From Candidatus Latescibacterota bacterium (lineage in GTDB: Bacteria; Latescibacterota; UBA2968): a stretch of DNA of 64,000 nucleotides. Under the pieces are notes generated by a model. It had not been told where the DNA came from, made no database searches, and saw only the letters and a list, made by a program, of their open reading frames with translations. Shown piece by piece: positions 38,704-56,485 of this stretch (the first letter of the stretch is position 1; the number at the start of each line of letters is the position of its first letter). Location: contig OZ242311.1 in NCBI GenBank assembly GCA_965207885.1, positions 1,408,001 through 1,472,000 of the forward strand. The letters run 5' to 3'. Made by a program: the position numbers and the translations under genes.

Positions 38704-39204
38704 CTAAATAGTCTTGAAATTCGGCCTTATAATAGACGCAATCTCTTCCGCCCGTTCCCATGACACGGTCACCTTCTGCTTCAAACCCCCATCTTTTGGC
38801 TGTAAGGCAGCGATATGCGGTGGTCCACTCCCCCAGGTGCTCGACTTTCTGCGAGGTACAACGTGCATGTGAAAATGCGGCACCTCCTGCAAACTGGCCA
38901 CACCGTTATTCTGATAGACCGTAATCCCATCTGGATTGAAAGTTTTAACAAGTGCTTTCGCTGCTATTCGGACCATCTTCACAATTTCACCAGCCTCATC
39001 ATCCGTCAAATCCAATATCATCGGCGCATGGCGGCGAGGAACAACGAGAAGCTGGCCGATTTCAAACTGCCTGGGATTGAGCAACGCAAGCGTCTTGTCA
39101 GTCGAATGGATAACATGCCTCATTTCACCGCGTCCGGCAACTATTTCACAAAATGGACATGGATCCCATGTCGGCATCTCAAAAGGGGCAACAGTATCAC
39201 TCAT
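38704..39204 (-). CDS. HIT-family protein
   Basis: CPFC and the HFHMHVVPR histidine triad. Confidence 0.92.
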   Translation of the reverse strand: MSDTVAPFEMPTWDPCPFCEIVAGRGEMRHVIHSTDKTLALLNPRQFEIGQLLVVPRRHAPMILDLTDDEAGEIVKMVRIAAKALVKTFNPDGITVYQNNGVASLQEVPHFHMHVVPRRKSSTWGSGPPHIAALQPKDGGLKQKVTVSWERAEEIASIIRPNFKTI

Positions 39205-39218
39205 CTCTCATCCTCATC

Positions 39219-40115
39219 TCATCCGCTTTGATTTTCTCTCCCCCAGTGCTTTTGTCGCACCAATGGCATCCAGCCAAACCGCTTATAGAACCTTCCCGCG
39301 CCAGCCTGTTCGTCCTCCCGCGCAACGGACAGCACGACCCGATCGCACTCAGCCAGCCGCAGCCATTCAACAGCGTGACGGACAACCCACGAACCGACTC
39401 CCTGATTTCGCATTGAATCGCTCGTCTCGACCTCCGAAAGCTCAGCCCATCCCGCCAATGCGGGCAACTGGCCGCCTTCAGTAAGATCCGAAATACATTC
39501 ACAGTGCGCAACATCTCGTCCTTCCCATCGCGCGACAAATCGGGTACCGAATTTCCCCACATCGCGATGGATTGTTACACCTCTTACTGGCGGCTCACCA
39601 GGAGAAGAAATTTCATTCAGCGTGCCACCATAGACGGTTGAATCAACTTCCCTATTCGATGAATAACCAAATCGCTCTATCAGATCAGCTATGTGCGGCC
39701 AGACCTTCGGTATTCCTACACAAGTATGAACCGGCAAGGTACCCGAAATCCTCTCGTCCAATACCTGCCAGGCATTCATTTGACGCCGGCACTCCGTCAT
39801 GATTACCTCGCCAGCTTCACGCTCTCCGGGCCAAAACAAGATCCAATCAATTTCTCCAACGCCCCTCCAGCGCGTGTCGTCACCGTATCGGAGGAGATGC
39901 GCCGCCGCGCAAACGCGATCTCTGACTATTCCAACAATGGACCTTCTCTCAACAACCCAGGGATCAACGACTTCCTCCCGCGGATTTCTCTTCAGATGCT
40001 TCCAAAAGTAATCGGGTGTCAAGCTCCACCCGGGTATCACGGTGCTGAGATGACTATTCACAAGATCCATGACTTGGGGTAGATGAAAGCGATCAAGTGG
40101 TGCTATTTGTACCAT
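39219..40115 (-). CDS. GNAT acetyltransferase (tandem domain)
   Basis: MRNQGVGS, RFYKRFGW; start estimated. Confidence 0.8.
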   Translation of the reverse strand: MVQIAPLDRFHLPQVMDLVNSHLSTVIPGWSLTPDYFWKHLKRNPREEVVDPWVVERRSIVGIVRDRVCAAAHLLRYGDDTRWRGVGEIDWILFWPGEREAGEVIMTECRRQMNAWQVLDERISGTLPVHTCVGIPKVWPHIADLIERFGYSSNREVDSTVYGGTLNEISSPGEPPVRGVTIHRDVGKFGTRFVARWEGRDVAHCECISDLTEGGQLPALAGWAELSEVETSDSMRNQGVGSWVVRHAVEWLRLAECDRVVLSVAREDEQAGAGRFYKRFGWMPLVRQKHWGRENQSG

Positions 40116-40581
40116 ATAATTTCTCATAAAAAACAATAGTCATTCTGTCATTGAGCTCTCGCGTAATACCAGTTCTCCTATAGCCCATTTTCTCATAAAA
40201 ATAACAATTGCCTTCCTCTTGTAAAATCGTCTCAAGCTCCCAGTGCTCCGCATCAACAACATCTTCAACAAGTGCCATAGCATCCTGACCATACCCCTTC
40301 CCCTGATGCTCTGGGACGATAAACATGGGACTAATCCTCGCCCGTCTCACCTCGCCATCGTAGATAATTCTGATCGCTCCGATTCGCACGCCGTCAAGCA
40401 TAATGAAGTAATAAGTGGTATGGGGCTGCTTTAATCTGTCGATAACCCGTTCAACATCTTCAGTGGCTGGATTCGTATCGTAATCCCGATACTTGCGAAG
40501 CAGTGGCAAAAATGACTCAATCTGAAGTCCGTGAATAGCTTCGGCATCTCTAATAGATGCTTTCTTTAAACTGATTCGCAT
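40093..40581 (-). CDS. GNAT acetyltransferase
   Basis: PEHQGKGYG, N.YFYEKMGY. Confidence 0.88.
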   Translation of the reverse strand: MRISLKKASIRDAEAIHGLQIESFLPLLRKYRDYDTNPATEDVERVIDRLKQPHTTYYFIMLDGVRIGAIRIIYDGEVRRARISPMFIVPEHQGKGYGQDAMALVEDVVDAEHWELETILQEEGNCYFYEKMGYRRTGITRELNDRMTIVFYEKLYGTNSTT

Positions 40582-40585
40582 AAGT

Positions 40586-41137
40586 TCACCTATTTTTTCG
40601 AGCCTCCCATTCATCACGCAATAACCCACACCACACCATGTTTTTAAATTCGCCTCTCAGATAGATATCCTGGCGCAGGACACCTTCACGGACCATTCCG
40701 AGCTTCTCCATTACCCGGAGAGAACCCACATTCCTCTCATCGGCTGCAGCGCGAATGCGATTCAACTCTGGATAGCCTGAAAACGATTCGTCGATAACAG
40801 CACCCGCAGCTTCCGTAGTCAACCCTTTTCCCCAAAAGCGTCGGGCAATGCTATAGCCCATTTCGCCAACGCGATTATCAAAATCAAACCCAATATTGAT
40901 TCCACCAATAACAGAACCAGCGTATTCAATCGCCCAGGACACGTGTGTTTTGCGATCCTGCAACACTTGACCTGCTACAAATTTTTCGGCATCTGCTCTC
41001 GTGTAGGGTTGGGGAACCGGGAGAAAACGCGCCCATTCCGGATCAGATGCGTATAACAAAACATCTTCAACATCCACAAGGCTAAACAGCCTGAGTATCA
41101 ATCGGTCTGTTTGAATAAGTTCTGACAGCATTTTCAT
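40586..41137 (-). CDS. GNAT acetyltransferase, RimJ/RimL type
   Basis: TDRLILR, EMGY, FWGKGLTTEA, N.GS.RVMEKLG..EG. Confidence 0.92.
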   Translation of the reverse strand: MKMLSELIQTDRLILRLFSLVDVEDVLLYASDPEWARFLPVPQPYTRADAEKFVAGQVLQDRKTHVSWAIEYAGSVIGGINIGFDFDNRVGEMGYSIARRFWGKGLTTEAAGAVIDESFSGYPELNRIRAAADERNVGSLRVMEKLGMVREGVLRQDIYLRGEFKNMVWCGLLRDEWEARKNR

Positions 41138-41151: not shown

Positions 41152-41772
41152 TCAGCGCACATCCTCATTTAACCACCTGGAAAAACTCTCGTCATTGGTG
41201 TACTCATAGGCAAAACCACCACAACCTCTGAACAACTTTGGCTCCTTGCTGCCATCTTCAATCAAGAGACTATTTTCATAGTGAATATCATCCCCCAGCG
41301 CTTTAAATGCAATGGGCCAGAGTACGCGCTTATCGAATTCTCCGTAATCAGAAGAATTGATAATCACATCAAATTTTTCATCCAATCTATGCGCTGGAAC
41401 GACGACATTTGAGAAAACATCCATATTGGCAGTTACAATTGCAGTTCGTCTCCCTTGACTTCTCTGCGCGAGCGCGAAATTCAGAACTGCCTCGTTAAAG
41501 TCAAGATCTCTGCATCCCAACGCCATAGTTTTCAAAACCGTAGAAATATCCATATTTGCGTGATCGGAGACAATGGCCGCAATATCTCTAAGACCCAGGG
41601 CATTCGTCATCCACATCCTGCAGACAGGCCGATTGGCGAACACATGCTCTTGGATAATATCGTGCCACTCGGGACATTCAGGTGGAGATACCTTGAAATA
41701 GAGATCCGATGACAACGTAAAACCGAAATCGAAAACAATACACTTGATCTTACTCAGATCACCAACCTTCAT
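41152..41772 (-). CDS. HAD-like hydrolase
   Basis: IVFDFGFTL (motif I variant), VTAN, LLIED. Confidence 0.7.
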   Translation of the reverse strand: MKVGDLSKIKCIVFDFGFTLSSDLYFKVSPPECPEWHDIIQEHVFANRPVCRMWMTNALGLRDIAAIVSDHANMDISTVLKTMALGCRDLDFNEAVLNFALAQRSQGRRTAIVTANMDVFSNVVVPAHRLDEKFDVIINSSDYGEFDKRVLWPIAFKALGDDIHYENSLLIEDGSKEPKLFRGCGGFAYEYTNDESFSRWLNEDVR

Positions 41773-41786
41773 TTCCCACACCTTTT

Positions 41787-41848
41787 GACTGAACTTTTGG
41801 AATAGTCTCGAAATGGTGAAGGCATCAATCTACAAATTGGGATTCAAT
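41787..41848. repeat. 62-bp direct repeat, copy A (3' end of the APH gene plus downstream spacer)
   Basis: 55/62 identical to 45941-46002 by manual alignment. Confidence 0.9.
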
Positions 41849-42670
41849 AGCTCTGACAACACCAGGTACGTACTGCTCAAAGCCGTAATTTAGAGCGAAG
41901 AAAACAACAAAAAAGAGCTTTCGCTTTGACTCATAATCCACCCGCGGCCAGAAATCCTCCCCCAACGGCAATTGGTAGTGTTCAACCATATCCTCGGTAA
42001 ACTGCTTCCCGAACCTGCGATAAAACGTTGCGAAATCAGCAGCCGGATCGCTGATACTTATATCGCCGAAATCAATCACCCCAACAATCTTCGAGTGTGC
42101 CGCATCAATCAGGACATTGTTGGTACCAAAATCCGAATGGGCAATGACGTTCTGATAGGTGGCAGACGTGACTTTCGGTATTGCTCGTTGGAAGTAGTCT
42201 TCGGCTTTCTTCCGAACATGGCCTCGCAGATGCGGAGACACGGCTGGCCACAATTCTCCCCAGAAATCATTGCCCCCAAATGGAGCAGCCTTGATATGCT
42301 GGTGTTCGAATACAACAGCGTGAAGACAAGACAGAAAATTGCCCAAAACTTCTGCCGTAGTCTTTCTCTCCCTCTGACCGAGATTCTGAAATATCTTCTC
42401 AGAAAACTTGGCACCCTCTATCTTTTTGTAGGCTATGTAGTTGGTGCCCGAGTGGCGTATTTCCGGAATTGACAGAGGTGAGACTTTCTGGAAAAGGGGT
42501 AGAAAAGCCTGTTCAACAGCAAGCTGAGTATTTGAGAGATCCCGAACAAAGCGGAATATCCACTTCGCGTTTACTTCCAAAACCACATGCGTCCAGCCTT
42601 CATCCAACTGAATAATGGATTCGACAGGCTCAGTTAGCGCATTTCGAATGATTGATTCGTACGTCTGCAT
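41825..42670 (-). CDS. Aminoglycoside phosphotransferase (APH/ChoK) family protein
   Basis: EGW, HSDFGTNN (Brenner motif), GVIDFGD..DPA.D. Confidence 0.85.
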   Translation of the reverse strand: MQTYESIIRNALTEPVESIIQLDEGWTHVVLEVNAKWIFRFVRDLSNTQLAVEQAFLPLFQKVSPLSIPEIRHSGTNYIAYKKIEGAKFSEKIFQNLGQRERKTTAEVLGNFLSCLHAVVFEHQHIKAAPFGGNDFWGELWPAVSPHLRGHVRKKAEDYFQRAIPKVTSATYQNVIAHSDFGTNNVLIDAAHSKIVGVIDFGDISISDPAADFATFYRRFGKQFTEDMVEHYQLPLGEDFWPRVDYESKRKLFFVVFFALNYGFEQYVPGVVRAIESQFVD

Positions 42671-42900
42671 GCGATTTAGCTGAAATGCGCGTAATCCCCA
42701 AGTCCTTCAGACTTGGGATGTAACGCGCTAAAATTTATGGGGCGGTGCTTTAGCCTGGGGCATATCGCGAATATGCGATATGGGTGGTGAATCAACCAGA
42801 CTATTCGAATAATTCTACATGACAATGTGCTATGTATTTATTAGATTGAACCTATACAATCTAACACAAGGGGTTGATCGTGAAGTTGAAAAGTCCTGAC

Positions 42901-43293
42901 ATGAAATATCACACCTCGCACAGTGCAGTTTTCAGTTGCCATTATCATGTTGTCTGGTGTACCAAATATCGACGCCAAGTGCTGTCTGTTGACATGCAAA
43001 CCCGACTGAAAGACTTATTGCTTGAGAAGCAGTGCGAATATGGCTATGAAGTGCAAGGTTGTGAAATCTTGTCTGATCATGTTCATTTGCTTCTTTCTGT
43101 TACGCCGTCAAAGCCAGTGAGTAGTGTTGTAGGCAGGCTCAAAGGCTATACGGCTCATATTCTGCGGTCTGAATATCCAGAACTTAAAAGCAGATTGCCG
43201 TCTTTGTGGACGCGGAGTAAGTTTGTAGCAACCGCTGGCGAAGTGACGCTTGGAGTTCTGAAACGCTACGTCGAAAATCAAAAGGGCGTATAG
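42901..43293 (+). CDS. tnpA: IS200-type Y1 HUH transposase
   Basis: YHVVWCTKYRR, DHVHLL (HUH), LWTRS, YVENQ; start between 42874 and 42901. Confidence 0.95.
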   Translation: MKYHTSHSAVFSCHYHVVWCTKYRRQVLSVDMQTRLKDLLLEKQCEYGYEVQGCEILSDHVHLLLSVTPSKPVSSVVGRLKGYTAHILRSEYPELKSRLPSLWTRSKFVATAGEVTLGVLKRYVENQKGV

Positions 43294-44396
43294 TGGACTA
43301 TATAACTTACAAATTCAAGCTGTATTCGGTGTGTGACCGCAACAAGTACCTGCACTATGAGATAGACGCTTTTGCGGGCGTGTATAACCACTTCATAGCT
43401 TTGCACAAGAGATACTATCAGCGTTTCAATAAGTATCCGAACAAGTATGCACTGAAGAAGCATCTGACAAAACTGAAAAAAACTGAGCGGTTTGGTCATT
43501 GGAGTGCGCTACCGTCTCAGGCATTGCAAGATGTGGTATTTCGCATAGATTTTGGCTACCAGAAGTTCTTTGCCAGAGACAACAAGCGACCGCCCACATT
43601 CAGGTCACGCTTTCGGTATCAGTCCTATACGCTGGCGCAGGCAGGCTACAAATTTCTTTCTGGTAACAAAGTGCGTATCGGCAAGCGTGTATTCAGATAC
43701 CATAAAAGCAGAAACTTCGATGTAGATAGTATCAAGACGGTCACAATCAAGCGTGACCGTGTAGGTGACTTGTGGCTATGTGTTGTTGCAAAGGCTGAAG
43801 GTATCAAGTCATTCATTGCCAAGAACGGTAAAACCGCAGGCTTTGACTTTGGCTTGAAAACATACCTGACAGCCTCAGACACCACACGAACACAATCGCC
43901 TTTGTTCTTTTCTCGCAACGCCAGACAGGTGAAAAAAGCCAACCGCAATCTGTCACGTAAGCAGAAAGGCAGCAACAACTGCCATAGCGCAAGAGTAAAC
44001 CTTGCCAGAATGCATCGGCGTGTTGCCTCAAAGCGCAGGGACTATCACTGGCAACTTGCCTACCATCTTTGCAGGCAATATGACGTAATGTGCTTTGAAA
44101 AGCTGAATATCAAAGCCATCCAACAGTTGTGGGGCAGAAAGATTAACGACCTGGGCTTTGCCGACTTCTTGACCATCCTCAAGTATGTCGCACAAAAGAC
44201 AGGCAAGACAGTTCGGCAACTCGACCAGTGGCTACCCACATCTAAGACATGCTCCGCATGTGGCATGTTACAAGAGAATCTTGAATTGCGAGAAAGAACA
44301 TTCCGCTGTGGCTGTGGTCTTGAAATAGATAGAGACCTCAACGCAGCGATAAACATTCACAGGTGGGGGCGTCCACCTCTGGCGGAGGCAGCGTAA
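43293..44396 (+). CDS. tnpB: RNA-guided endonuclease TnpB
   Basis: RuvC-I GFDFGLK, RuvC-II CFEKL, Zn ribbon CSAC..CGC, RuvC-III DRDLNAAINI. Confidence 0.95.
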   Translation: MDYITYKFKLYSVCDRNKYLHYEIDAFAGVYNHFIALHKRYYQRFNKYPNKYALKKHLTKLKKTERFGHWSALPSQALQDVVFRIDFGYQKFFARDNKRPPTFRSRFRYQSYTLAQAGYKFLSGNKVRIGKRVFRYHKSRNFDVDSIKTVTIKRDRVGDLWLCVVAKAEGIKSFIAKNGKTAGFDFGLKTYLTASDTTRTQSPLFFSRNARQVKKANRNLSRKQKGSNNCHSARVNLARMHRRVASKRRDYHWQLAYHLCRQYDVMCFEKLNIKAIQQLWGRKINDLGFADFLTILKYVAQKTGKTVRQLDQWLPTSKTCSACGMLQENLELRERTFRCGCGLEIDRDLNAAINIHRWGRPPLAEAA

Positions 44397-44509
44397 GACC
44401 AGGCTTGAATAGCTGGCTACTGCCGTTGATACCACAATCCCTGCTGAAGCAACAAGAATCCCAATGCTTCAGCTTTGGGAGTACGTCAATCTCTCCACTT
44501 ATCGCGCGG
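44340..44509 (+). ncRNA. Predicted TnpB omega/reRNA: scaffold to 44489, guide from 44490
   Basis: Inferred from known IS605 architecture; the 5' boundary is a guess. Confidence 0.5.
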
Positions 44510-45220
44510 ATAGGCATAGAAGTTAAATTCTCCTCTATTGAGCGCCTCATCGAATTGCACAAGAGCCTTGATTACCTTTTTTCGGGCATCTGCCATAAAC
44601 GGATTCAGCAATTGCGTCTCTCTGTATGTAGAAGGCGAGTTCGTTTTCAGGTGTTCAATCAATTGCAGGAGAAACCTGCCTGCTCCAGATGGTAACTTCT
44701 CGCGCTCGTCCTCCGGTAGATAGAGTTCAAGAGCCATCCCAATGAAATGCGCCATACCAGGACCTGTTCTGCGGTCTTCATCTTCTGCAGTCCTGGGAAT
44801 CAGCTTACAACCCATTCGCTTCAAACATGCTGCTATATTGGGATCCGCTTTTCCAAATAGTGGTATATTGCCTGGACCAAGATGCGACAGTCCAAACCTC
44901 TTTCGATTCAATATTGACAGTTCCTTATCTACAGCAAGTCGTGCTGTACAACAATCAATCACAACGCAATCAGATTTGGCATGCTCATTGATCTTCGGAA
45001 CCCACTTGCCAAGTGCCCAGATGGGAATAGCCAAAAAAATAACATCTGCCTCGGAAAGACTTTCAGTATTGTTGCTTGACTGCCGCGCTCTAACATCAAT
45101 CAGCTCAGAGCTTATATCGCGACTTGAAATAACCTCGACCTGAAATTGATCTGCGAATGCATTTACTGCCTGCTTTCCCATTCTGCCAAAACCGATTATG
45201 CAAAGTCTCTTCCTTGCCAT
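44486..45220 (-). CDS. Prephenate dehydrogenase-like NAD(P)-binding protein
   Basis: IIGFGRMG, ADVIFLAIP, VIDCCT, Q.LNPF. Confidence 0.7.
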   Translation of the reverse strand: MARKRLCIIGFGRMGKQAVNAFADQFQVEVISSRDISSELIDVRARQSSNNTESLSEADVIFLAIPIWALGKWVPKINEHAKSDCVVIDCCTARLAVDKELSILNRKRFGLSHLGPGNIPLFGKADPNIAACLKRMGCKLIPRTAEDEDRRTGPGMAHFIGMALELYLPEDEREKLPSGAGRFLLQLIEHLKTNSPSTYRETQLLNPFMADARKKVIKALVQFDEALNRGEFNFYAYPRDKWRD

Positions 45221-45939
45221 TACAAATGACTTCCTTTATGTGAACTTCTGCTCGCCTGCTCGATCCAGTTGGGAAGATGCAAAACCAGATCATTCATTAT
45301 CCTCTCTGTATTTTCTACATAAATCTGCACATTGCCTTCATAAGCTTCGCCGCCTTCAGCCCCCACCAAATCTGTAACCCCGCGTAAAATGAGACATCTG
45401 ACCTTATTTCGGTTTGCTACCCAGGCAATTGCGCCCGATTCCCAATCCCCTGCTACTGCACCATATTTGGACTTCAAAACCGAAATATCTTCTGCCACCA
45501 GATCGCGGTCTGCTGATACCAGAACAGTTCTCAACACGGGATGGGGATATGGCTCACTTAACCACGAAAGATCAATCTCAGTTGTATAATCTCTGATCGC
45601 TTCCTCGGCATCCAACATCTGCTCGACAATATCATAGACAACCGTACGCTCAACCAGCACAATCGTATCCTTCTCAACCCCACTTTCAAATCCACCGCAA
45701 GTCCCCAAATTCACCACGAGATTTGGAGACCATTGATCAATAGCATATTGTGCTGATGATGCTGCCGAAATCTTACCCCATCCTCCGTGAAAAAATATGA
45801 CTGGCTGTTGCCCACCTTTAATGTCAAGGTGCGTCTCAAACCATTGTCCATAAGGAGATACTTGTAGGTCAGCATCGGGAAAAATTCTCTCGATAGCATC
45901 CCATTCAATATTGGCTGAAATGATCACAACAACAAACAT
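45220..45939 (-). CDS. 5'-methylthioadenosine/SAH nucleosidase family protein
   Basis: ISANIE, GGWGKISAA, NLGTCGG, DWESGA, RGVTD. Confidence 0.85.
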   Translation of the reverse strand: MFVVVIISANIEWDAIERIFPDADLQVSPYGQWFETHLDIKGGQQPVIFFHGGWGKISAASSAQYAIDQWSPNLVVNLGTCGGFESGVEKDTIVLVERTVVYDIVEQMLDAEEAIRDYTTEIDLSWLSEPYPHPVLRTVLVSADRDLVAEDISVLKSKYGAVAGDWESGAIAWVANRNKVRCLILRGVTDLVGAEGGEAYEGNVQIYVENTERIMNDLVLHLPNWIEQASRSSHKGSHL

Positions 45940-45940
45940 A

Positions 45941-46002
45941 GACTAAACTCTTGGGATAGCCTCGAAATAGTGAAGGCATCACTCTACAAATAGGGATTCA
46001 AT
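45941..46002 (-). pseudogene. 62-bp repeat copy B: last codons of an APH paralog (IESLFVE*) plus spacer
   Basis: Fills almost the whole gap between the racemase stop and the nucleosidase ATG; homologous to 41787-41848 (IESQFVD*). Confidence 0.85.
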
Positions 46003-46004
46003 TT

Positions 46005-46667
46005 TCAGTCTCCAACTTGTTTCCAAACATTGGCTGCATACATTAAGCCTATTTCAGGGCTGCTGAGGATTGGAACTGAAATTTCCGGGCACAAATTTGC
46101 GGCTCCCGCCATAGAGGCTTGTGCCAATACAATGACATCTCCTTCAGATGCTTTGTCTTTTATATTTCGGGCTATTTCACTAAAATATCCTTTGTGGTCT
46201 CCCTCCTCAAACCTGCTCCAAGCATTAGCACAAAAAACCTCAATAAGCTCAACGCGCTTTCGACGTGTTTTTGCGGTTTCAAAAATAAGGTCACGAGTTG
46301 GAGCGATTGTACTCTCAAGTGCGGCAGCAACAATAATTCGAGAACCTATTTCGACTGCTTTCTCAGCCATGGGTCTATCGATTCGAACAATAACACCATC
46401 TGTTAAATGATTTACTTTTTCCGCACTTGCTCCAATTGTAGAACATGTGCAGAGTATCACAGTTGCGCCTTTTTTTCTTTCGGAGAGGATACAATCCCGA
46501 ATACGTTCATCTAACTTTTGAGTGATTCCTTTGTCACGGGCCTCTGTCAGAAATTGCTCCTCTATAATATGTCTAACGGGTAATTCTAAAGAAGCTTCCT
46601 CTATAAGCCGATTGAAAGTATCGATATGCACCGGTGAAGTGTGAAGCAAAGCCAAATGGGATTGCAT
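46005..46667 (-). CDS. Asp/Glu/hydantoin racemase-like protein
   Basis: LLHTS, LCTCSTIG, RIDRPMA, VLAQASM; RBS before ATG at 46667 (the ORF-track start at 46742 lies inside the IS). Confidence 0.8.
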   Translation of the reverse strand: MQSHLALLHTSPVHIDTFNRLIEEASLELPVRHIIEEQFLTEARDKGITQKLDERIRDCILSERKKGATVILCTCSTIGASAEKVNHLTDGVIVRIDRPMAEKAVEIGSRIIVAAALESTIAPTRDLIFETAKTRRKRVELIEVFCANAWSRFEEGDHKGYFSEIARNIKDKASEGDVIVLAQASMAGAANLCPEISVPILSSPEIGLMYAANVWKQVGD

Positions 46668-46727
46668 GAAATGACGCCCTTTCTCCGATAAATAGCGTTT
46701 TACCACAAAAATTTTACTAATATTGTG

Positions 46728-47924: not shown

Positions 47925-47988
47925 AATATTGTGACAATCTTAGCGGCAAAATGGTTTCCATATCGCAGAAGTGGAAATAGACCATTGC

Positions 47989-48249
47989 TCAAACGGCTGT
48001 GGTCTGTCTAATTTCCCAACCGGGAAAAACGAGAACAGCCGGATGGCACTTCAACGCCCGAGCGAGCACCTTGGCGCGCTCAACACCAAGCCGGATGCGG
48101 TTATTTTCGATAGCCGAAATAGTCGATTGGGGAATACCTGTGCGCCTGGCAAGCTCATTTTGACTAAGTTCCTGAAGCTCTCGGATAATACGGACGGATT
48201 CTCCTACAGATACATCAATCTGTTTCTTGGCACGACGGTAATTTTCCAT
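47989..48249 (-). CDS. XRE-family HTH protein (HigA-like antitoxin)
   Basis: VGESVRIIRELQELSQNELARRTGIPQSTISAIEN. Confidence 0.85.
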   Translation of the reverse strand: MENYRRAKKQIDVSVGESVRIIRELQELSQNELARRTGIPQSTISAIENNRIRLGVERAKVLARALKCHPAVLVFPGWEIRQTTAV

Positions 48250-48250
48250 T

Positions 48251-48298
48251 TCACTGTCTCCGGTAATCATGAGCGGTTAGACTTACAACCTGTATGTA
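48251..48298 (-). pseudogene. 3' remnant of a RelE/HigB-type toxin gene
   Basis: Reads YIQVVSLTAHDYRRQ*, with an HDY end like HigB/RelE toxins; its stop is 1 nt before the antitoxin ATG; it starts directly after the GNAT stop. Confidence 0.7.
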
Positions 48299-49006
48299 CT
48301 ACGAAATATGAATATCCACACCATATAATTGTAATCCAAGCTTTTCTGCAACGCGTTGAGAGGCTTTATTGTCCCAGGAAGTACTATAAAGAGGAATACG
48401 ACCTTGTTCTCTAACCAGCCCAGCCCACCTTGCTACAACCTGTGCTGCATAACCCTTGCCCCGATGTGATAGTAAGGTATCTACTCCCGCTTCCTCTGCC
48501 TCCACTGATTTCCGCACACTCTGGCAAACCGATACCGCTTTGTCTCCCTCGACAATCGCCACAACAGGCTGGCAGTGATCCAATTCAGGAACCAGGTCGG
48601 AAAAACCAAATTCAAGGAGATATGCTGTATCCCGATCAATCTGCACGACCTCGGGGGAGACTCCAAGCGAGTCTGGAAATCGATAGGCGGGACCCATCCA
48701 TTGCCGATCCATTGTAATATGTGGTGTAAGCAGATCCTTCACTTTAGCCAGGTACGAGGGGCTTTCATATAAATTGTCAGACAGTGGTTGAGCCTGGATG
48801 ATCGTCTGGACTCGCTGACAGAGCGCTTCTGGTATGTCATAGCGAAAACGCACGATCGAACCGCAACGAGTTCGTCCAATGAAAACAACAGGGGCAGGAT
48901 GGTCCTCTGGTCGAAACGGTTCATTTATGAAACGGAGACGTTCATCATTATCATGAACAAAGAGCGTATCAACCTGAATTTTCATGAGTAATAAGTCAGA
49001 AATCAT
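48299..49006 (-). CDS. GNAT acetyltransferase
   Basis: AGVDT..HRGKGYA, YSTSWDNKASQRVAEKLG. Confidence 0.88.
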   Translation of the reverse strand: MISDLLLMKIQVDTLFVHDNDERLRFINEPFRPEDHPAPVVFIGRTRCGSIVRFRYDIPEALCQRVQTIIQAQPLSDNLYESPSYLAKVKDLLTPHITMDRQWMGPAYRFPDSLGVSPEVVQIDRDTAYLLEFGFSDLVPELDHCQPVVAIVEGDKAVSVCQSVRKSVEAEEAGVDTLLSHRGKGYAAQVVARWAGLVREQGRIPLYSTSWDNKASQRVAEKLGLQLYGVDIHIS

Positions 49007-49437
49007 AGATTTGAGTCACGCGATCGTATCAGAGTATCTACCCCGTATTTTCCTGAGCCGATAACCACGAACATCCCTGTAATAACCAGGTACAGAAATG
49101 CCATCTCCTTCGTGCTGAATGGATCCGCTGCGTGTTGTAAGAACCCGGCCACCAGCATGGTCGAGCATATCAAAAACGCCCCTGGTCGCGTGAGTAATCC
49201 CAGTGCCAACAATAGCCCGCCGCCAAACTCCGAAAAGGCTGCCATCCAGGCAAAAAACTCGGGCAAGGGAAACCCCAAATTTTCTATAACGGCCACAAAC
49301 CGCTCGGAAGGTGGGATCTTCCCCAATCCATGTCCCAATGCCATACTCAACCCTACAAACACCCTGAGAATCGCCAGCCCGACATTTGCCGGGATCGACT
49401 CAATAACCGCTCCGCCAAATACAAGTCGCTTAATCAT
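49003..49437 (-). CDS. DoxX-family membrane protein
   Basis: LRVFVG..HGLGK, EFGGGLLLALGLLTR, GSGKYGVD. Confidence 0.9.
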   Translation of the reverse strand: MIKRLVFGGAVIESIPANVGLAILRVFVGLSMALGHGLGKIPPSERFVAVIENLGFPLPEFFAWMAAFSEFGGGLLLALGLLTRPGAFLICSTMLVAGFLQHAADPFSTKEMAFLYLVITGMFVVIGSGKYGVDTLIRSRDSNL

Positions 49438-49475
49438 AAAACCACCTCCATATTAAGGTTTACAGATGTCGTCAT

Positions 49476-50219
49476 TTACTCAGATAGTTCAACAGCATCT
49501 CTGAAAATCGCTGCTGTGGTCGATATGACCTCATCCCAAAGCCTGCGTCCCAACTCGGCACTCGCTCGGGTCGCGTCGCCAATGACACCAGTATCTGAGT
49601 ATTTTGTGAAATCGAGATGCGGATCATCCCAATTCACTTCTCTTGAACTGGAAGAAGGGATACTTTCGAATCTAACCGTGTCCGGACGTTGATACAGGGC
49701 AATTGAAGTCGTAAAACTATCGGCGTGACCGCCAGGAACGCTGGGATCGGCTACACGGCACCAGATGTCGTGATATGGCAGGGGTGGAAGACAAGCCTTG
49801 CATCCCGGTTGGAATTTCGCGTTGAACCTGTCCACCGCCTCCTGCAGTCGATGCTCACCGCAGCCGCGCCAGACAACAATAGTGCCGAGACCCTGCTCTG
49901 CCAGCGATTCAAGGACAAAATAGACACACGCTTCATGAACAACGTGCGGGATGTTGACATATCCCGAGCCAAACCCCCGATGTTCGGGCGTGGGACCAAA
50001 TGGCATGGCTGGCAAAACCAGAGCACGTACATCGTGACAGCGTGCCGCATGCTTTGCAGCCTCCAACGCAACGGCTTCCGCAAACCATGTGTCGAAATCT
50101 ACTGACAAATGCGGACCCTGTTGCTCGGTACATCCTGTGGGTACAATCGCCAGGCATCCGGCATCAACCAGATCCTTGATTTCTAAGTACGTATAATCAG
50201 TAAATTTATGGGATTTCAT
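49476..50219 (-). CDS. Creatininase/MftE family protein
   Basis: PTGCTEQQGPHL..D, GGHAD, GVIGD. Confidence 0.85.
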   Translation of the reverse strand: MKSHKFTDYTYLEIKDLVDAGCLAIVPTGCTEQQGPHLSVDFDTWFAEAVALEAAKHAARCHDVRALVLPAMPFGPTPEHRGFGSGYVNIPHVVHEACVYFVLESLAEQGLGTIVVWRGCGEHRLQEAVDRFNAKFQPGCKACLPPLPYHDIWCRVADPSVPGGHADSFTTSIALYQRPDTVRFESIPSSSSREVNWDDPHLDFTKYSDTGVIGDATRASAELGRRLWDEVISTTAAIFRDAVELSE

Positions 50220-50664
50220 TTTGACTCTTCCACACATTAACCAAATCAATAGCAGAAGGACCTGTTTGCACCTTGTAATAGGTCCTCGTCTTGTCCGCGA
50301 AGTAATCCTTGATGCGTTCGACCTGCTTTGGGGACGTGTTGCTCGGGATACGATCTAAATGAAAATACTCAATCTGATCCGCCTCATCGGTGAGTTGAAT
50401 TGTGCCCCCTGTAACCTGGCAAAAAAATGACAACACGATCTCATTCTTATCTGTTTTACTGTACACCCCACTGAGATGGACGGGCACAGCTTTCAAACCC
50501 GTTTCTTCTTCTATCTCTCGCACCAGAGCAGCCCACGGACTCTCGCCTGCCTCAACGCCACCACCCGGTAAATTCCACAAATCGAAGTCGCGTCGGTGGC
50601 ACAACAAGACGCGGTCTTTGTCATCGGTAATAATCCCAAAAACTCCGATAGTGAACACGGTCAA
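50206..50664 (-). CDS. NUDIX hydrolase
   Basis: PGGGVEAGESPWAALVREIEEETGL Nudix box. Confidence 0.92.
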   Translation of the reverse strand: MTVFTIGVFGIITDDKDRVLLCHRRDFDLWNLPGGGVEAGESPWAALVREIEEETGLKAVPVHLSGVYSKTDKNEIVLSFFCQVTGGTIQLTDEADQIEYFHLDRIPSNTSPKQVERIKDYFADKTRTYYKVQTGPSAIDLVNVWKSQNEIP

Positions 50665-51209
50665 AACCCTCTTTTGATATATCGAACATATCCCAACTCT
50701 GCCTCGGAGATATCCAACCCGTCGAGTTCACCTATTGGGACAAATGTCGCGTCCTCCTCATAGTCATCATCGCACATCAAATCTGGCACATGTTTGGAAG
50801 CGCGGGCGGTATAAATAATTTGAAAAAAGTGAGGGAGATATGGGAACTGGAATCCAGGCGGCTTCGGCTTGAGATGTTCCAGATGGATGAACCCCAGGCG
50901 TGAGATAGATTCAACCGTCCAGCCTGTCTCTTCAATAACTTCACGGCGAAGTGTTTGTTCGAAAGTCTCTCCCTCCTCGCGACGACCGCCCGGCAAAATG
51001 TGATTGCCCTTACGGTTCCTGAGTACGAGAACAGAATCATTCTGGAAAACGAGACATCGAACAGAAGTTACAAACTGCTCTGATGGCTGTTCATCGGAAC
51101 AAAAATAACGCACGCGCAAAGGCATCGTCCCATTTGCCCACAGAGCCTCTGTCTCGTGAAAAGGAGTCTTACCCTTCAAAAACGTCTGTATATCTCCGTT
51201 ATGATTCAA
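50661..51209 (-). CDS. NUDIX hydrolase
   Basis: PGGRREEGETFEQTLRREVIEETGW. Confidence 0.9.
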   Translation of the reverse strand: MNHNGDIQTFLKGKTPFHETEALWANGTMPLRVRYFCSDEQPSEQFVTSVRCLVFQNDSVLVLRNRKGNHILPGGRREEGETFEQTLRREVIEETGWTVESISRLGFIHLEHLKPKPPGFQFPYLPHFFQIIYTARASKHVPDLMCDDDYEEDATFVPIGELDGLDISEAELGYVRYIKRGF

Positions 51210-51738
51210 TGCTGTCTATTCCTTTAAAATCGAGATATAAACGACTGGGTTGAATACCCGTATTATTTTGATACTTTCCACTTTTGTAGGTCTCGAAATC
51301 GCCATCCAGCGTATGATAGTAAATCTGGCAGATTTCCACATTTGGATAGATTCGGACGGGTCGAATACAGAACATTTCCAAAGTCCAGTAGCCCGCGAAG
51401 CCTACATCGCCAAAACCTGCGGTTATGTGTACAAACAACCCCAATCTACCCACTGATGACCGCCCCTCAAGCATGGGGACATAATTATCCGTTCTGGTAA
51501 ATTCTACTGTCCTGCCAAGATAGAGCGTTTGGGGTTGCATCTCGTACCCATCATCCGGAATCTGTATAGATCGCGTGCGATTTTTCTCTTTCATATCGAG
51601 AACACCATCCTCGTATATCATAAGTTCATTGGCAAGTGACAGGTTATAGCTATTGGGATTGAGCCTGGCAGGATCAAATGGCTCAATAATGATATCCTTT
51701 CCCATTCGCTCGTGAATCATTTTTCCCGATAAAATCAT
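51199..51738 (-). CDS. dcd: dCTP deaminase (trimeric dUTPase fold)
   Basis: MILS, NPNSYNL, EGRSSVGRLG, AGFGDVGF.G.WTLE, KYQ. Confidence 0.92.
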   Translation of the reverse strand: MILSGKMIHERMGKDIIIEPFDPARLNPNSYNLSLANELMIYEDGVLDMKEKNRTRSIQIPDDGYEMQPQTLYLGRTVEFTRTDNYVPMLEGRSSVGRLGLFVHITAGFGDVGFAGYWTLEMFCIRPVRIYPNVEICQIYYHTLDGDFETYKSGKYQNNTGIQPSRLYLDFKGIDSIES

Positions 51739-51752
51739 TACGCGCTCCCCGA

Positions 51753-52229
51753 CTATTCTACTTCTGGAAGATCCCTGTACATGATATGCATATAATCTGT
51801 AAATCCATGCTTTCTCCAAAATGAATATCCAACGGTATTCATAGAAGCCACTCGAAGTTCAACTCTGTCTATATCCTGAGACCGAAACCAATCCAACATC
51901 TCTTTTAGCATCAACTCTCCAATTCCCTTTCTCCTGTGTTCAGAAGAAACAGCCAAATCTTCAATAGTGCCACAGGTTTGCTTGATGAATACGGGAGGAT
52001 ATTTGTCAACTCTCGCTATTCCAAAGCCCAATGGCTTTGTATTCTCAACCGCCATAATCACAAGGGCATCCTCAGCTTCGATCAGTCTTTCCAGATTCTT
52101 ATCCATGCTCTCTTCTGCACCATCGGACAGAGTATATCTCGAATCAAACGGGACGTGAAAATCCATGAGTTCTTTCCAGATCTCGAGTATACCGGATATG
52201 TCAGATTTCAAAGCCCTAACAACTTCCAT
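51753..52229 (-). CDS. GNAT acetyltransferase
   Basis: LAVSSEHRRKGIG, N..G.SFWRKHGF. Confidence 0.9.
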   Translation of the reverse strand: MEVVRALKSDISGILEIWKELMDFHVPFDSRYTLSDGAEESMDKNLERLIEAEDALVIMAVENTKPLGFGIARVDKYPPVFIKQTCGTIEDLAVSSEHRRKGIGELMLKEMLDWFRSQDIDRVELRVASMNTVGYSFWRKHGFTDYMHIMYRDLPEVE

Positions 52230-52247
52230 TTCATCCTCTCCAATATA

Positions 52248-53060
52248 CTATCCGTCATTGACCACCTGACTATATATTTCCGTTTTTAAAACCTCCGAAA
52301 TTACAAAATCGAGAAAATCTATAGCCTCTTGTCTCGCGTCCAATTCAATACCGTATTGCCACGCCAGAGCATCCCCTACCAGATCACGCCATCTTTCTCC
52401 ATAATTCTCCTGCACCCATGACGCAGCCATCTTCTTTGAGCCAACAACGGAGCAAATTACAGTATGCAGTATTCGACACAGATTCAGAATGAAATACGCT
52501 TCGTGGTGGCTATCTCTAAACCACTCCGGAATAAATTTTTTCGGTGCCCATTCCTGAAACAAATCGCGCACGCAGGCTTTTCGCACATCCTCAACATCAA
52601 CCGGAGGCAACAGCTTCTTAAAACTCGGACCAAATAAAGCAATGGAATGACCATAAAGAAAATATTTGTTGATTATCCATTCATTTCCATAAGGTGCCTC
52701 CTCATAAAGGGTACAATCACCACCCCAATACCACGGTCTCGGCTCCGTTGGAGGCATAACACATGGGAGCATATCGACAGGCGTATAAGAACACTCTAAC
52801 CTCCGCGCCCATTTCTCAAATCTCCCTTCCATATCTCTGTGCAAACGCCCAATGGAATCGAGTTCACATCGAGAAACAGGTCGATGCACAATCACTATAA
52901 TATCAATATCACTGCTATGGTAGTTAAACGCCCCATGGGACAGCGAGCCAGTTAGATATATCCCGAGTACATTTTTTTCGAGAACGGGAATAACGCCTTT
53001 AACGAAAAAGTCTATAATCTCGTTCACATCTGAATATTTCGTAAGGTTGCCAGCAATCAT
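52248..53060 (-). CDS. AadA-like nucleotidyltransferase (DUF4111, aminoglycoside adenylyltransferase domain)
   Basis: YLTGS..G....SDIDI, RLECS, YFILNLCR..SKK.AA.W. Confidence 0.82.
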   Translation of the reverse strand: MIAGNLTKYSDVNEIIDFFVKGVIPVLEKNVLGIYLTGSLSHGAFNYHSSDIDIIVIVHRPVSRCELDSIGRLHRDMEGRFEKWARRLECSYTPVDMLPCVMPPTEPRPWYWGGDCTLYEEAPYGNEWIINKYFLYGHSIALFGPSFKKLLPPVDVEDVRKACVRDLFQEWAPKKFIPEWFRDSHHEAYFILNLCRILHTVICSVVGSKKMAASWVQENYGERWRDLVGDALAWQYGIELDARQEAIDFLDFVISEVLKTEIYSQVVNDG

Positions 53061-53082
53061 TGGATTGTCTTCGTCTATACTA

Positions 53083-53214
53083 TCACATCAACTTGCGTTT
53101 CATGAACACTGCAACTTCACCATCGACATCACTATTGGTATAATAGGACAAATCGACACCCTCGACTTCAAAACCGACGCTGCGATAGAAATCAATGGCT
53201 GGCACATTCGATAG
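53083..53214 (-). pseudogene. 3' remnant of a GNAT (streptothricin acetyltransferase-like) gene
   Basis: Reads SNVPAIDFYRSVGFEVEGVDLSYYTNSDVDGEVAVFMKRKLM* (GNAT motif B); no start codon; abuts the AAC(3) stop. Confidence 0.8.
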
Positions 53215-53216
53215 GT

Positions 53217-54041
53217 CTATTTCGATCTATTCTCTTCCAACCAATCAACTGCGAAATCCACAACATCGCGTTGTGGCATGAGATGACAACTCGCGAGACC
53301 AACCTTGCCCTGACGCACCACTTTCCCTGTATCTGACCGCAAAAAATCCTCACCTATGCGATCAAAATCCGAACTATCGATGTCAACATCTTCAAAGGTA
53401 GCCCAGGTCCTTAAACCCGACGCAGAGATCGGAGCGCCCTCCTGCACAATGCGTTTGGTAGAAAAATTCGCCCGATATTCTGCAAGGTGCATAGACGTAT
53501 TATTTCCGTGACCTACGCCAAGAAGCAGGACAAAACCGTGCAAATCGTAGATTCTCGCAAGCGGCGAATGCTCACCCATGCCAAAAGATAGTGAATGATC
53601 ATTTACGATATACGACGCTTGAGGCCCATACGCGCAAAATGAGTCCAGCGGATGTGAACTGCGGAGAACCCTTCTCTGCTTGCGAAATGTCTCCGCAATA
53701 ATCCCCATAGCACGAGTTGGTGTAAGCGCCGGATCGTAAGCCGGCATAGTCTCGCGTATCACCGGCCACCACGACTCGGGCACAGGAGGACTTTCCCACT
53801 TGCTCGGCTCGCTCAGACCGGATGAATGGGCGGGCATCACAAGCGTTCCCGTAGAACCCAGAACTTTCTGAAGCGCGGTGACAACCGCCACGGCTCCTCC
53901 GCACACCCATCCCATAGCACTCAAAGACGAATGCACCAACACGACCATCCCCGGCCTAACACCAAGCGCGCGAAGATCTGTCTGCAACGATTCAATCGTA
54001 GCAGGCATTTTTGTTTTTTCAACAACCTTGTCTTCACTCAT
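53217..54041 (-). CDS. AAC(3)/YokD-family N-acetyltransferase
   Basis: LVHSSLS..GWVCGG, LVMP, W..PPVP, RSSHP..SF, NTSMHLAE. Confidence 0.92.
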   Translation of the reverse strand: MSEDKVVEKTKMPATIESLQTDLRALGVRPGMVVLVHSSLSAMGWVCGGAVAVVTALQKVLGSTGTLVMPAHSSGLSEPSKWESPPVPESWWPVIRETMPAYDPALTPTRAMGIIAETFRKQRRVLRSSHPLDSFCAYGPQASYIVNDHSLSFGMGEHSPLARIYDLHGFVLLLGVGHGNNTSMHLAEYRANFSTKRIVQEGAPISASGLRTWATFEDVDIDSSDFDRIGEDFLRSDTGKVVRQGKVGLASCHLMPQRDVVDFAVDWLEENRSK

Positions 54042-54062
54042 TATTTTTTTCCACTGCACCAC

Positions 54063-54407
54063 CTATTTCGCAGCAATCACGACCATCTCTACAAGCGTAT
54101 CTCCCTCCAGCTTAACCTCCACACAGGCGCGCTGGGGCCAATTGTAGGGACCAATCCAGGCGTCCCAAACCTCGTTCAGGATGGGTTTCTTTGACATATC
54201 CGTGATATAAATCGTGACGGAAAGAAGACAAGACTTATCGGTTCCAGCCTCGGCGAGATTCGCATCCAACTGTTCGAGCACCTGCTGGGTCTGGCCCTTG
54301 AAATCTGCAGACACGTCCGGTGCGATGACAACCGTATAGACGATGCCATTGTGCTCAACGGACTTGCTGCGGCCAAATGCCTTTCCCGGGTACCGTTTGA
54401 TAGTCAT
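54063..54407 (-). CDS. RidA (YjgF/YoaB) family protein
   Basis: QTQQVL..LD..L..AG.DK, N.VWDAW, P.RACV, LVE. Confidence 0.9.
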   Translation of the reverse strand: MTIKRYPGKAFGRSKSVEHNGIVYTVVIAPDVSADFKGQTQQVLEQLDANLAEAGTDKSCLLSVTIYITDMSKKPILNEVWDAWIGPYNWPQRACVEVKLEGDTLVEMVVIAAK

Positions 54408-54610
54408 AAATACTCCAATAGATATTACAACATAAATTTTACTGATCTTGTGACAATTCTATCCACAAGATGGTTTCCGTGATGCACACGATAAGTTTTT
54501 TGGGAAGGACCAGGATGACTGGGATAATGGTCTGCGGATTGCCGAACCTGACCGAAAGATAAGAGAAAGGTTGAGTGGGCTGAGTAAGGAAAGGGTTGGG
54601 AATGGGTGTA

Positions 54611-54934
54611 TTACATCTCCTTGCGATCTGAATGCGTGCCCACTTTCCGAGCCGCAAATCTCATCATCTCATCTGAAAAATCGATAGCCACACACGTTGC
54701 TTTTGGATATTTCATCAGAACACAATTGAGAAATATACCCGTTCCACATCCCAAATCGAGCATTCGAAATTCCGTCTGGTCATCAAACGGAATAAAATCC
54801 ATAGCCAGACTGTGGTAAAATTCAAACATCTCAATCCGAACTGGTTGCAGGCGATCATAAGCCTCAGCACGGGTTGAGAATTGAACACTTTGAGATTTTT
54901 GGTTCTTTTGATTATTCATCATTTCGGCCATCAT
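54611..54934 (-). pseudogene. Truncated class I SAM methyltransferase (N-terminal half only)
   Basis: MLDLGCGTG and AIDFSDEM present; stops at about 107 aa, before the later motifs. Confidence 0.75.
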
Positions 54935-55691
54935 ACTTCCTTATTTTTAATTTTTTTAAATTTGATATGTACCCTTCTGCTTGATCACAAAACGCGAGAT
55001 ACTCTTCAGTTGAAATTGCTTCGGATTTGCGGATCTCTAACGCTCTATGAGCAAAATGATCTTTTCGATCTTTTAGATGATCAATAAGCCCTTCGTATGA
55101 TGGAGTGAATTTAAACCCATACGCTACTTCTGCCTCTACGAATGCCAGATGCAGCACCTGTTTGGCAAATGCTTGTGGGGAGAGCCTGAGCTTTCCATTC
55201 TTGCGACGGATGCTTTTAATACTGCGCTTGATGCCAATGAAATGGATGCTTGCTTCCTGTTTTGGTGGATAGGGCTTGATGGGAAAAGTAGTAAAATTGA
55301 ATTTTATGCCCCATAAATACATATAGAATGGTAATCGTTTTATCATTATGCGGATTGGAATCCAAGATGTTGCATTGCCCCTTTGATTGCCCCCTTGTAG
55401 TTCGGAAATGGTAATTCCTCTAAAACAAGATTTGATACCAAACCCAGGTTCAACAGACTCATCGAAATAGCTATTGAGATGGTCTTCTTCACAAAAATCA
55501 AACGTCTTAGCTACTATTCCAAGCAGATCTATATCGCTGGAAGGTAGTCGATCAGGAGTCAGAAAAGTACCCCCGAGATAAAGGGCAAGCAATCCTCTAT
55601 CGTGTAGCTTTGAAACAGTTTCTTCTGATACTCGATCGATAATAGCATGATGAAGATCATCTCTTTTGGAATTTGTTGACACTTGGGACAT
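54912..55691 (-). CDS. Pol-beta-superfamily nucleotidyltransferase-like protein
   Basis: YLGGT......SDIDL motif; AT-rich. Confidence 0.65.
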   Translation of the reverse strand: MSQVSTNSKRDDLHHAIIDRVSEETVSKLHDRGLLALYLGGTFLTPDRLPSSDIDLLGIVAKTFDFCEEDHLNSYFDESVEPGFGIKSCFRGITISELQGGNQRGNATSWIPIRIMIKRLPFYMYLWGIKFNFTTFPIKPYPPKQEASIHFIGIKRSIKSIRRKNGKLRLSPQAFAKQVLHLAFVEAEVAYGFKFTPSYEGLIDHLKDRKDHFAHRALEIRKSEAISTEEYLAFCDQAEGYISNLKKLKIRKYDGRNDE

Positions 55692-55747
55692 TTCTTCTCA
55701 ATGCAAGCAAAATTTAGTATGAATCTGACTGACGTAATCACCCAAAG

Positions 55748-56485
55748 TTACTTTGAAAACAGCAGACAGGCATCCACTCTGCTTACGAAACCTTGCGGCT
55801 GACGACTACACAAAATTTGCTGTGCTTTCATCTTAAATTCATCCGGGAGTTCATCCCAACTTTTCTTATTGAGAAAACCTATTAGATCTTTAGCTTCTCC
55901 AGTGAGACTCCCCTCACAAAAGAAATCCTTGATTGGTATTGGTAGAGTGTGTGTAAAGCACTCATGCTCAAATCCCTCTGAGGAGGCCCACTCTGAGAAA
56001 TTCTCTCCCGCAATCAGATCTTGGGTATATTGACTCAGTTCTTTCCGTAGCTCATCATCCCTGGATGAGACGGATATAAATAACTTCCCACCAGGTCTCA
56101 CCAGGTCTAACGCCTTCTGAAGCATGATGCGATCATTTCCTATCCGATACCAGGAATGAATAGAGATAACAAGATCATACTGATATTGAGATTCAAATGT
56201 TTGGAGAGTATCATAATGCCGTTCTATGATAAGGTGTTCGACATCATTCGCTTCAGTCTGGGCGTTAAAGATCCGGCTCGCGAATTCGGATAAATCTATA
56301 TAGCCCAACCTGATTCCTAATTCTTTGGCTAATTGGATCTCCAATTTTCCTTCGCCACTTCCTATTGAGAGCAGTGAAGACACGCCTCCCAATAATCCGT
56401 GGTCTTTGAATATCTGATAGAAAATCGCATCATTACGGATGAATTTTTCATATATCCTGTAATATATGGGCCAGAGTGACGACAT
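55748..56485 (-). CDS. Class I SAM-dependent methyltransferase
   Basis: LSIGSGEG, YDLVIS.HSWY, VRPGG.L. Confidence 0.85.
   Translation of the reverse strand: MSSLWPIYYRIYEKFIRNDAIFYQIFKDHGLLGGVSSLLSIGSGEGKLEIQLAKELGIRLGYIDLSEFASRIFNAQTEANDVEHLIIERHYDTLQTFESQYQYDLVISIHSWYRIGNDRIMLQKALDLVRPGGKLFISVSSRDDELRKELSQYTQDLIAGENFSEWASSEGFEHECFTHTLPIPIKDFFCEGSLTGEAKDLIGFLNKKSWDELPDEFKMKAQQILCSRQPQGFVSRVDACLLFSK

Follow-up and report, generated by a model that had tools for sequence, protein, structure and literature searches.

Within a window of 64,000 nucleotides (nt), the whole stretch of DNA analysed here (G000:C1:1408001-1472000), an array of about 24 small co-directional genes and two insertion sequence (IS) elements occupies positions 38704-56485. 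An original prediction, made from the letters of the window, had described it as an integron-like array without attC sites or integrase, joined through the tails of other genes. It proposed either an undescribed capture of units composed of the tail of a donor neighbour, a ribosome-binding site (RBS) and a gene, or intense gain followed by deletions. Comparison with related genomes leads to another view: the array is probably an ancient, vertically inherited cluster of small genes under differential deletion, and not a capture device. The source genome, G000, consists of one contig of 6.23 Mb (51.1% G+C); other G numbers designate the related genomes compared, which comprise 21 species of the genus and a second family, f2. 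Genome sizes of the lineage range from 4.6 to 6.5 Mb. Relatives retrieved with the HIT protein of the array were metagenome-assembled genomes (MAGs) labelled Candidatus Latescibacterota or Poribacteria, and the public sequencing runs containing the window were sponge metagenomes.

The general aspect of the array was largely as predicted. All non-IS open reading frames (ORFs) lie on the minus strand and are small (72-305 aa), and they overlap or are separated by gaps of mostly <40 nt. Most of the families named in the original prediction were recovered with Pfam: HIT, five GNATs (starting at 39219, 40093, 40586, 48299 and 51753), APH, DoxX, two NUDIX, an AadA-like protein (AadA_C/NTP_transf_2), AAC(3) (Antibiotic_NAT), RidA, methyltransferases and an antitoxin (HTH_3). 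The HAD label given to the gene at 41152-41781 is unsupported, because its product has no Pfam match at E<=0.01; the same holds for the product of 54912-55691. Families beyond the predicted list are F420_oxidored-like, PNP_UDP_1, Asp/Glu racemase, creatininase and dCTP-deaminase-like. The AAC(3)-, APH- and ANT-like proteins are distant kin of plasmid-borne resistance genes (25-32% identity). When IS insertions are disregarded, the run length of the array is equalled by just one other run in genome G000. That run comprises 31 short co-oriented genes at G000:C1:6208636-6228523.

The distribution of the array in the genus was analyzed through its two flanks. The genes hflX and FAD_oxidored are found on one contig in 13 of the 21 genus species (G000 included), with an interval of 4.2-20.6 kb between them. 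All 13 complete intervals contain the same families along one backbone order, and the order is mostly the same. Array proteins are 85-97% identical to those of the window, and the nucleotide identity of the array (about 88-95% throughout) is equal to that of hflX and FAD_oxidored. About 45 gene families are present in the pooled genus arrays. Among those missing from the window are peptidases of types S8 and S9, an ArsR-type regulator, extra GNATs and methyltransferases, one more APH-like and one more PNP_UDP_1 gene, and Gp49-like + HTH_3 and YafQ-like + HTH_3 pairs.

Distant arrays, located via a search with the dCTP-deaminase-like protein, extend this synteny to f2. The four complete f2 genomes have an hflX 67-69% identical to that of the window, and their array families are 62-89% identical and collinear: methyltransferase-RidA-AAC(3)-S8 peptidase (X20)-DCD-NUDIX-NUDIX-methyltransferase-racemase, followed by (creatininase-S9)-APH-(41152)-GNAT-GNAT-(toxin-antitoxin)-APH-like. 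The f2 array lies downstream of an ortholog (87-89%) of the amidohydrolase gene of the window (60929-62107). An ortholog (80-81%) of the S9-peptidase gene (58995-60926) stands between the two in 3 of the 4 genomes, and none was matched in G033. In f2 genomes hflX is not at the array and is located elsewhere. The check on turnover proposed in the original prediction, in which a stable gene order across relatives was to count against capture, therefore gave a largely stable order in the 13 genus arrays, as well as in f2. Every array gene of the window that could be polarised is ancestral, by remnants in sister genomes or by presence in f2.

The longer gaps flagged in the original prediction as 3' ends of other genes were indeed gene ends: each of the four scars matches a gene found intact in sister species. 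The scar at 53083-53214 corresponds to residues 137-181 of the 182 residues of a GNAT, X21, and the scar at 45941-46002 reproduces, at 89% identity, the stretch at 41787-41848, which consists of the last 8 APH codons and spacer. The scar at 48271-48298 encodes QVVSLTAHD, the terminus of a YafQ-like toxin of 93 aa (X27). Outside the array, on the plus strand, the scar at 26244-26309 is the terminus of a 68-aa toxin intact in G006; the antitoxin (26313-26747) comes next, and from its sequence the pair may be read as hicA/hicB. Genes that seemed unique to the window also proved ancestral by their remnants: G003 retains the tail of 55748-56485 fused to the desaturase head, and G015 retains a piece of 54912-55691. 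Of the desaturase gene itself, 20 codons are left in G002 and G032.

A rule-based census of the 13 arrays identified 16 tail-only, 8 head-only and 6 head+tail remnants, and the excess of tails over heads is not significant (p=0.15). The census excluded five families whose representative ORF is a read-through chimera (w52248, X28, X20, w51199 and w50661), and at least two of its rows are borderline: in G008, X10 shows rather an internal deletion of small size, and the methyltransferase of G000 is head+tail. Several junctions retain traces of their formation. The G009 deletion runs from the RidA stop to about codon 158 of a NUDIX gene across an 8-nt AATAGGTG repeat (microhomology), and in G002 the first 15 codons of a GNAT are fused to the antitoxin via CGCTC. 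The toxin remnant ahead of the same antitoxin measures 6 nt in G017 and G015, about 22 nt in G000 and G004, 30 nt in G003 and 49 nt in G006. Since these remnants differ among genomes, the tails were formed locally and repeatedly, by independent breakpoints, and do not travel with the gene. Together with the stable order and a divergence equal to that of the flanks, this leaves the integron-like reading and its capture unit without support.

Breakpoints were defined as homology breaks between the G000 array and the 12 other arrays; they fall at 92 distinct positions, the underlying events not being independent. As the original prediction had suspected, they are clustered, at boundaries of coding sequences (CDS): 32 of 92 (35%) lie <=10 nt from a boundary versus 5% for a uniform distribution, and 53 of 92 (58%) lie <=25 nt from one versus 11%, under a null that ignores selection. 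The clustering is real, and would be caused by erosion halted by selection on the neighbour genes. Two of the four scars make such a constraint obvious, as they are toxin tails overlapping an antitoxin start; it is because of this overlap that the tails remain ahead of intact antitoxins.

Position changes were examined together with the short repeats of the array. The 62-nt repeat formed by the APH tail and its spacer (t62) flanks PNP-F420ox-IS605-APH in G000 and G010; G017 has a single copy (racemase|t62|41152), and in G002 APH.t62 stands immediately before PNP. The S8 peptidase (X20) of G004 is flanked by, and ends in, t33, in which 33 nt repeat the AAC(3) tail and the AAC(3)-X21 spacer, and the native C-terminus of this peptidase is present in G008 and f2. 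A third repeat, PE, is an element of about 75 nt ahead of RidA (54408-54485) and of the racemase gene (46700-46727 + 47926-47988). PE also precedes APH, F420ox or 41152 in some sister genomes, and within genome G000 it is confined to the array. Its RidA-type copies contain an 8-bp inverted repeat, ATCTTGTG-N11-CACAAGAT; as PE is usually placed after an HTH_3 gene, it may be a putative operator or promoter. G003 has two antitoxin-PE copies: a remnant before the racemase and, between 41152 and 40586, an intact one after which the first racemase codons recur. In G015 and G032 the APH-like gene has a copy of a NUDIX tail+head upstream, and in G002 NUDIX is followed by a copy of a DoxX tail and GNAT head. 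The t62, t33 and antitoxin-PE copies would be old segmental duplications that underwent differential loss. Over a background of 88-93%, nucleotide identity rises to 97-100% in patches at 44400-46000 and 56500-57700 versus G010, at 50800-51200 versus G017 and at 49000-49400 versus G032, which suggests recent, occasional homologous exchange between species inside the array. Sister genomes contain type II toxin-antitoxin arrangements, X27 upstream of HTH_3 and X44 (Gp49, 1.4e-17) upstream of X8 (HTH_3), the YafQ_toxin Pfam match of X27 (0.0025) being below the family cut-off. The window array keeps an antitoxin and a toxin tail only.

These observations can be assembled into the following scenario. 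The array would be a set of functionally independent small "housecleaning/detoxification" genes in a sponge-associated, Latescibacterota-labelled lineage. It would predate the split of the two families, lying downstream of the amidohydrolase and S9-peptidase genes, and a rearrangement in the genus would have brought hflX to its distal end. The genes lost would then differ from species to species. Genes or parts of genes would be removed by illegitimate deletions, of which some involve 5-8 nt of microhomology, and by recombination between short direct repeats, and the pseudogenes would erode until they reach sequence protected by selection, namely the upstream gene's stop codon on one side and the downstream gene's start region on the other. 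Since deletions that harm a retained neighbour would be purged and those in a dead gene would be free, remnants would shrink to these stop and start limits, with very short gaps, breakpoints clustered at boundaries and small scars as the outcome. Shuffling would be only apparent, through old segmental duplicates differentially lost (APH.t62, AAC(3)/X20 and the antitoxin-PE-racemase block), and toxin-antitoxin modules, including the decay of pairs, as well as IS insertions would add to the differences. The second alternative of the original prediction is thus partly retained: the data fit deletions halted at selected stops and RBSs, whereas intense gain found no support, the polarised genes being ancestral.

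Other explanations were considered. The gene order kept across two families and the tight packing could also be those of a coherent operon or of a biosynthetic or catabolic cluster, for instance one for self-resistance or tailoring of an aminoglycoside-like or nucleoside-like metabolite. Four public runs were examined as Logan contigs, and contigs of two metatranscriptomic libraries covered 28 of 30 and 26 of 30 bins, some of them 99-100% identical and bridging several gene junctions. Transcription that crosses junctions is one possible source of such contigs, and the array would be co-transcribed by read-through; as the contigs may hold DNA, they are a weak argument for a coherent cluster. 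Against such a cluster, nearly each gene is dispensable: only 6 of the 44 tabulated families are intact in 13/13 arrays, and one of the six, X39, overlapping RidA, probably does not represent a gene of its own; G009, with the smallest array, is down to about 10 genes. Nor did Pfam reveal a core biosynthetic enzyme family in the array, and we consider this explanation unlikely.

A fossil integron would be an ancestral integron, or a cluster of attC sites lacking integrase (CALIN), that lost its integrase and whose attC sites were deleted by the same bias that now produces the scars, so that compacted, co-oriented cassettes devoid of promoters would be left. The gene families and strict co-orientation resemble those of sedentary integron arrays, and two HigB/YafQ-type toxin-antitoxin modules are present in the pooled arrays. 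In Cury et al. 2016 (PMC4889954), from which the definitions of integron and In0 were also taken, a CALIN is an attC cluster without integrase, with two or more attC required, and may be a step to cassette stabilisation, which counts for this explanation. As predicted, no integron part was found in the array. The best TIGR02249 score in the whole genome is 88.6 bits versus a cut-off of 265, with no intI or remnant above that cut-off; the matches are two Xer-like genes at 0.66 and 1.70 Mb, and the closest of the four Phage_integrase (PF00589) genes of the genome is 228 kb from the array. attC sites were searched as R''(RYYYAAC)...R'(GTTRRRY) pairs spaced 40-150 nt. The G000 array has 0 such pairs versus 2.9 expected, and the 13 genus arrays have 16 versus 33 expected, with stem complementarity in none. 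The four f2 arrays have no attC-like site (raw pairs 0, 0, 0 and 6 versus 1.4-2.6 expected). On a control class 1 integron this motif scan recovered the aadA1 attC and missed that of dfrA1; because of this sensitivity of 1/2, gaps were also folded. Gaps >=50 nt folded as single-stranded DNA no better than shuffles (z +1.0 to -2.5), except the IS605 ends (z -4.1 and -1.8), and the two true attC sites gave z -4.2 and -4.8. No attC-like hairpin was seen in either set of arrays. Moreover, the array is compact in both families, so that no intermediate stage is seen. A fossil integron thus appears very improbable.

A related possibility is that an ancient platform for gene accretion, already fixed when the two families separated, left the array as its stabilised remnant. 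Its recombination sites would have been deleted by the bias that now produces the scars, and its genes would still be reassorted by tandem duplication, movement of toxin-antitoxin modules and homologous exchange among related symbiont species co-resident in one sponge. The platform could have been integron-like, or a locus at which promoterless genes are transcribed together by read-through. We give an accretion platform of this kind little credence.

Finally, capture or shuffling of units joined at stop codons could draw on the scars of the window that start 0-5 nt after an upstream stop, on t62 and t33, which are upstream-gene tails recurring at a second junction, and on the antitoxin module found behind five different genes. 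It is extremely unlikely, given that the remnant ahead of one antitoxin varies with context as expected from separate local deletions, that head-only and head+tail remnants are common, that the gaps share no junction motif beyond PE and t62, and that order is kept across families. A shared breakpoint at 48292, tried as the edge of a mobile [tail+gene] unit, is the end of the window's own remnant and hence a reference artefact. No evidence for circles was found among junctions in the Logan contigs: two joints that go back (48292>40585 and 50222>47989) were tried as circles and match alternative gene orders of relatives. DNA contigs of another sponge metagenome contain joints of sister genomes, for example 54919>57699 and 44557>45184, and lack both IS elements.

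Several points weigh against an ancient cluster shaped by differential deletion. In the four most divergent genus species hflX and FAD_oxidored are at separate loci with no array at either. Orthologs of two of the three searched array genes were not found in these four species, and for the third the only matches were paralogs of 33-34% identity, in 2 of the 4. We read this as loss of the whole array; taken alone it fits equally well a gain in the other clade, and the presence of the array in f2 is the sole argument for loss. The G+C content of the array is 42-54% versus 57% in the upstream flank. Some deletions are exact to a few nt at a stop codon, as in G017, where 6 nt separate the NUDIX stop from the antitoxin ATG. 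The antitoxin module occupies at least five positions, which exceeds the documented duplications, and therefore it may move on its own. To these are added the clustering of breakpoints at CDS boundaries, far above a uniform distribution, and the control attC missed by the motif scan.

The array was compared with known systems. It resembles a sedentary chromosomal integron or CALIN in being a long array of short, co-oriented, unrelated accessory genes with toxin-antitoxin pairs, IS and variable content. It differs from them in having neither IntI nor attC, in its gaps of mostly 0-40 nt or overlaps, in an order kept at family-level divergence, and in varying by loss rather than by cassette exchange. 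Differential loss of genes from a dispensable chromosomal region, with erosion of the pseudogenes, is reductive evolution under deletion bias. All kinds of remnants, the microhomology junctions, the expansion of the DDE IS to 39 copies and the species-specific retained subsets correspond to this process, whereas the array is unusually long, strictly co-directional and compact, and the genomes are large. Decay of type II toxin-antitoxin pairs (HicAB, HigBA/YafQ-like) accounts for 2 of the 4 scars, toxin 3' ends before an intact antitoxin, and for just those two. Tandem or segmental duplication with differential deletion corresponds to the t62 and t33 tail repeats and to the two antitoxin-PE-racemase copies of G003; the complete duplicated state, seen in no genome, is here deduced.

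Both IS elements were assigned to known families. The first (42874-44396, plus strand) encodes tnpA (139 aa) and tnpB (367 aa) and belongs to IS200/IS605 by its Pfam matches (Y1_Tnp, 1.5e-36; OrfB_IS605; Cas12f1-like_TNB) and its hairpin-rich end at 42671-42800 (z -4.1), subterminal hairpins being linked with this family. Its insertion is common only to G000, G010 and G003. The second (46728-47924, minus strand; DDE_Tnp_1) interrupts the PE element of the racemase gene and has 20-nt inverted repeats and a 9-bp target duplication, CACAATATT. With 39 near-full-length copies of 84-100% identity in genome G000, it is an active IS expansion. A very high contig depth was observed for the DDE IS in the public run best matching the window.

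The remaining features are given from the downstream flank, on the minus strand. The hflX gene (37334-38629; GTP-bdg_N/M, MMR_HSR1) forms this flank in the genus and has orthologs in 21/21 genus genomes. It is followed by a bidirectional terminator-like hairpin (37266-37286); apart from it, promoter-like and terminator-like sites are at chance level, in agreement with the predicted lack of terminators, and no tRNA gene or Rfam match is present within the window. A perfect palindrome with a 9-bp stem (38646-38667, folding z -2.5) was observed between hflX and the HIT gene, and in the corresponding bin the hflX leader region of the sister genomes ranges from 66-97% in identity. G000 and most sister genomes also have a second hflX paralog (48% identical), located in the former at G000:C1:1710369-1711586. 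The final gene of the array encodes the HIT-family hydrolase (38704-39204; Pfam HIT 7.5e-19) and is present in 13/13 complete arrays. The GNAT w39219 (39219-40136) is missing in several sister genomes, its tail alone being left in G032 and G005, and the next two GNATs (40093-40629 and 40586-41137, Acetyltransf_3) have 67-76% orthologs in f2. They are preceded by the 209-aa gene without known family (41152-41781), with an 83% ortholog in G035, by the first t62 copy (41787-41848; direct repeat D1, 62 nt, 89%) and by the APH-family phosphotransferase gene (41825-42670; APH 6.1e-21). Beyond the IS200/IS605 element, F420_oxidored-like (44486-45220) and PNP_UDP_1 (45220-45939) genes, of which internally deleted copies are found in G002 and G008, are preceded by the second t62 copy, which begins 2 nt past the stop of the racemase gene (46005-46742).

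The orphan HTH_3 antitoxin (47989-48270), whose partner toxin X27 is intact in G005, G008, G010 and G012, and the scar formed by the last ~9 codons of that toxin lead to a block of eight genes (48299-53060): GNAT, DoxX, creatininase, NUDIX, NUDIX, dCTP-deaminase-like, GNAT and AadA-like nucleotidyltransferase. Proteins 81-92% identical to the dCTP-deaminase-like product (51199-51819) were observed in MAGs of other lineages (loci L128-L132, L138 and L142-L144), with no other array genes; in the L128 genome (3.9 Mb), the only one checked, hflX is 51% identical. The gene may have moved between lineages of sponge symbionts, or its product may be unusually conserved. Then come the X21 scar (53061-53216; X21 is intact in 7 of the 12 other arrays), the AAC(3)-family and RidA genes (53217-54407; 70-84% orthologs in f2) and the RidA copy of PE. 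A methyltransferase pseudogene (54439-54934) lacks an internal segment of 476 nt, at 54622/54624, when compared with G017, and the array begins with genes for a 259-aa protein of unknown family and a 245-aa methyltransferase (54912-56485), both ancestral by the remnants in G015 and G003. The fatty-acid desaturase and FAD_oxidored genes (56510-58981) form the upstream flank in the genus, and the S9 peptidase and amidohydrolase genes (58995-62107) are the upstream anchor common to both families. Outside the array, another small, variable islet of short genes on the plus strand (25239-26900) contains a PIN-like gene with a partner and then hicA/hicB, and its presence or absence in sister genomes breaks at gene boundaries; G006 has an additional 1.1 kb at 26235/26253, with a 299-aa ORF and the intact hicA.

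No description of the array was found in the literature searched, supplementary files excluded, which included term look-ups in PMC12993501; the resistance-gene table of that paper may list some of the genes. The array opens no new mechanism. It indicates that an integron-looking array can arise and persist without integron machinery, which calls for caution when "cassette arrays" are proposed from sequence only. The many complete sister genomes constitute a natural record of deletions eroding dispensable genes to limits set by their neighbours. Sponge-microbiome work may find in the array a conserved toolbox of small enzymes, predicted to be of detoxification type.

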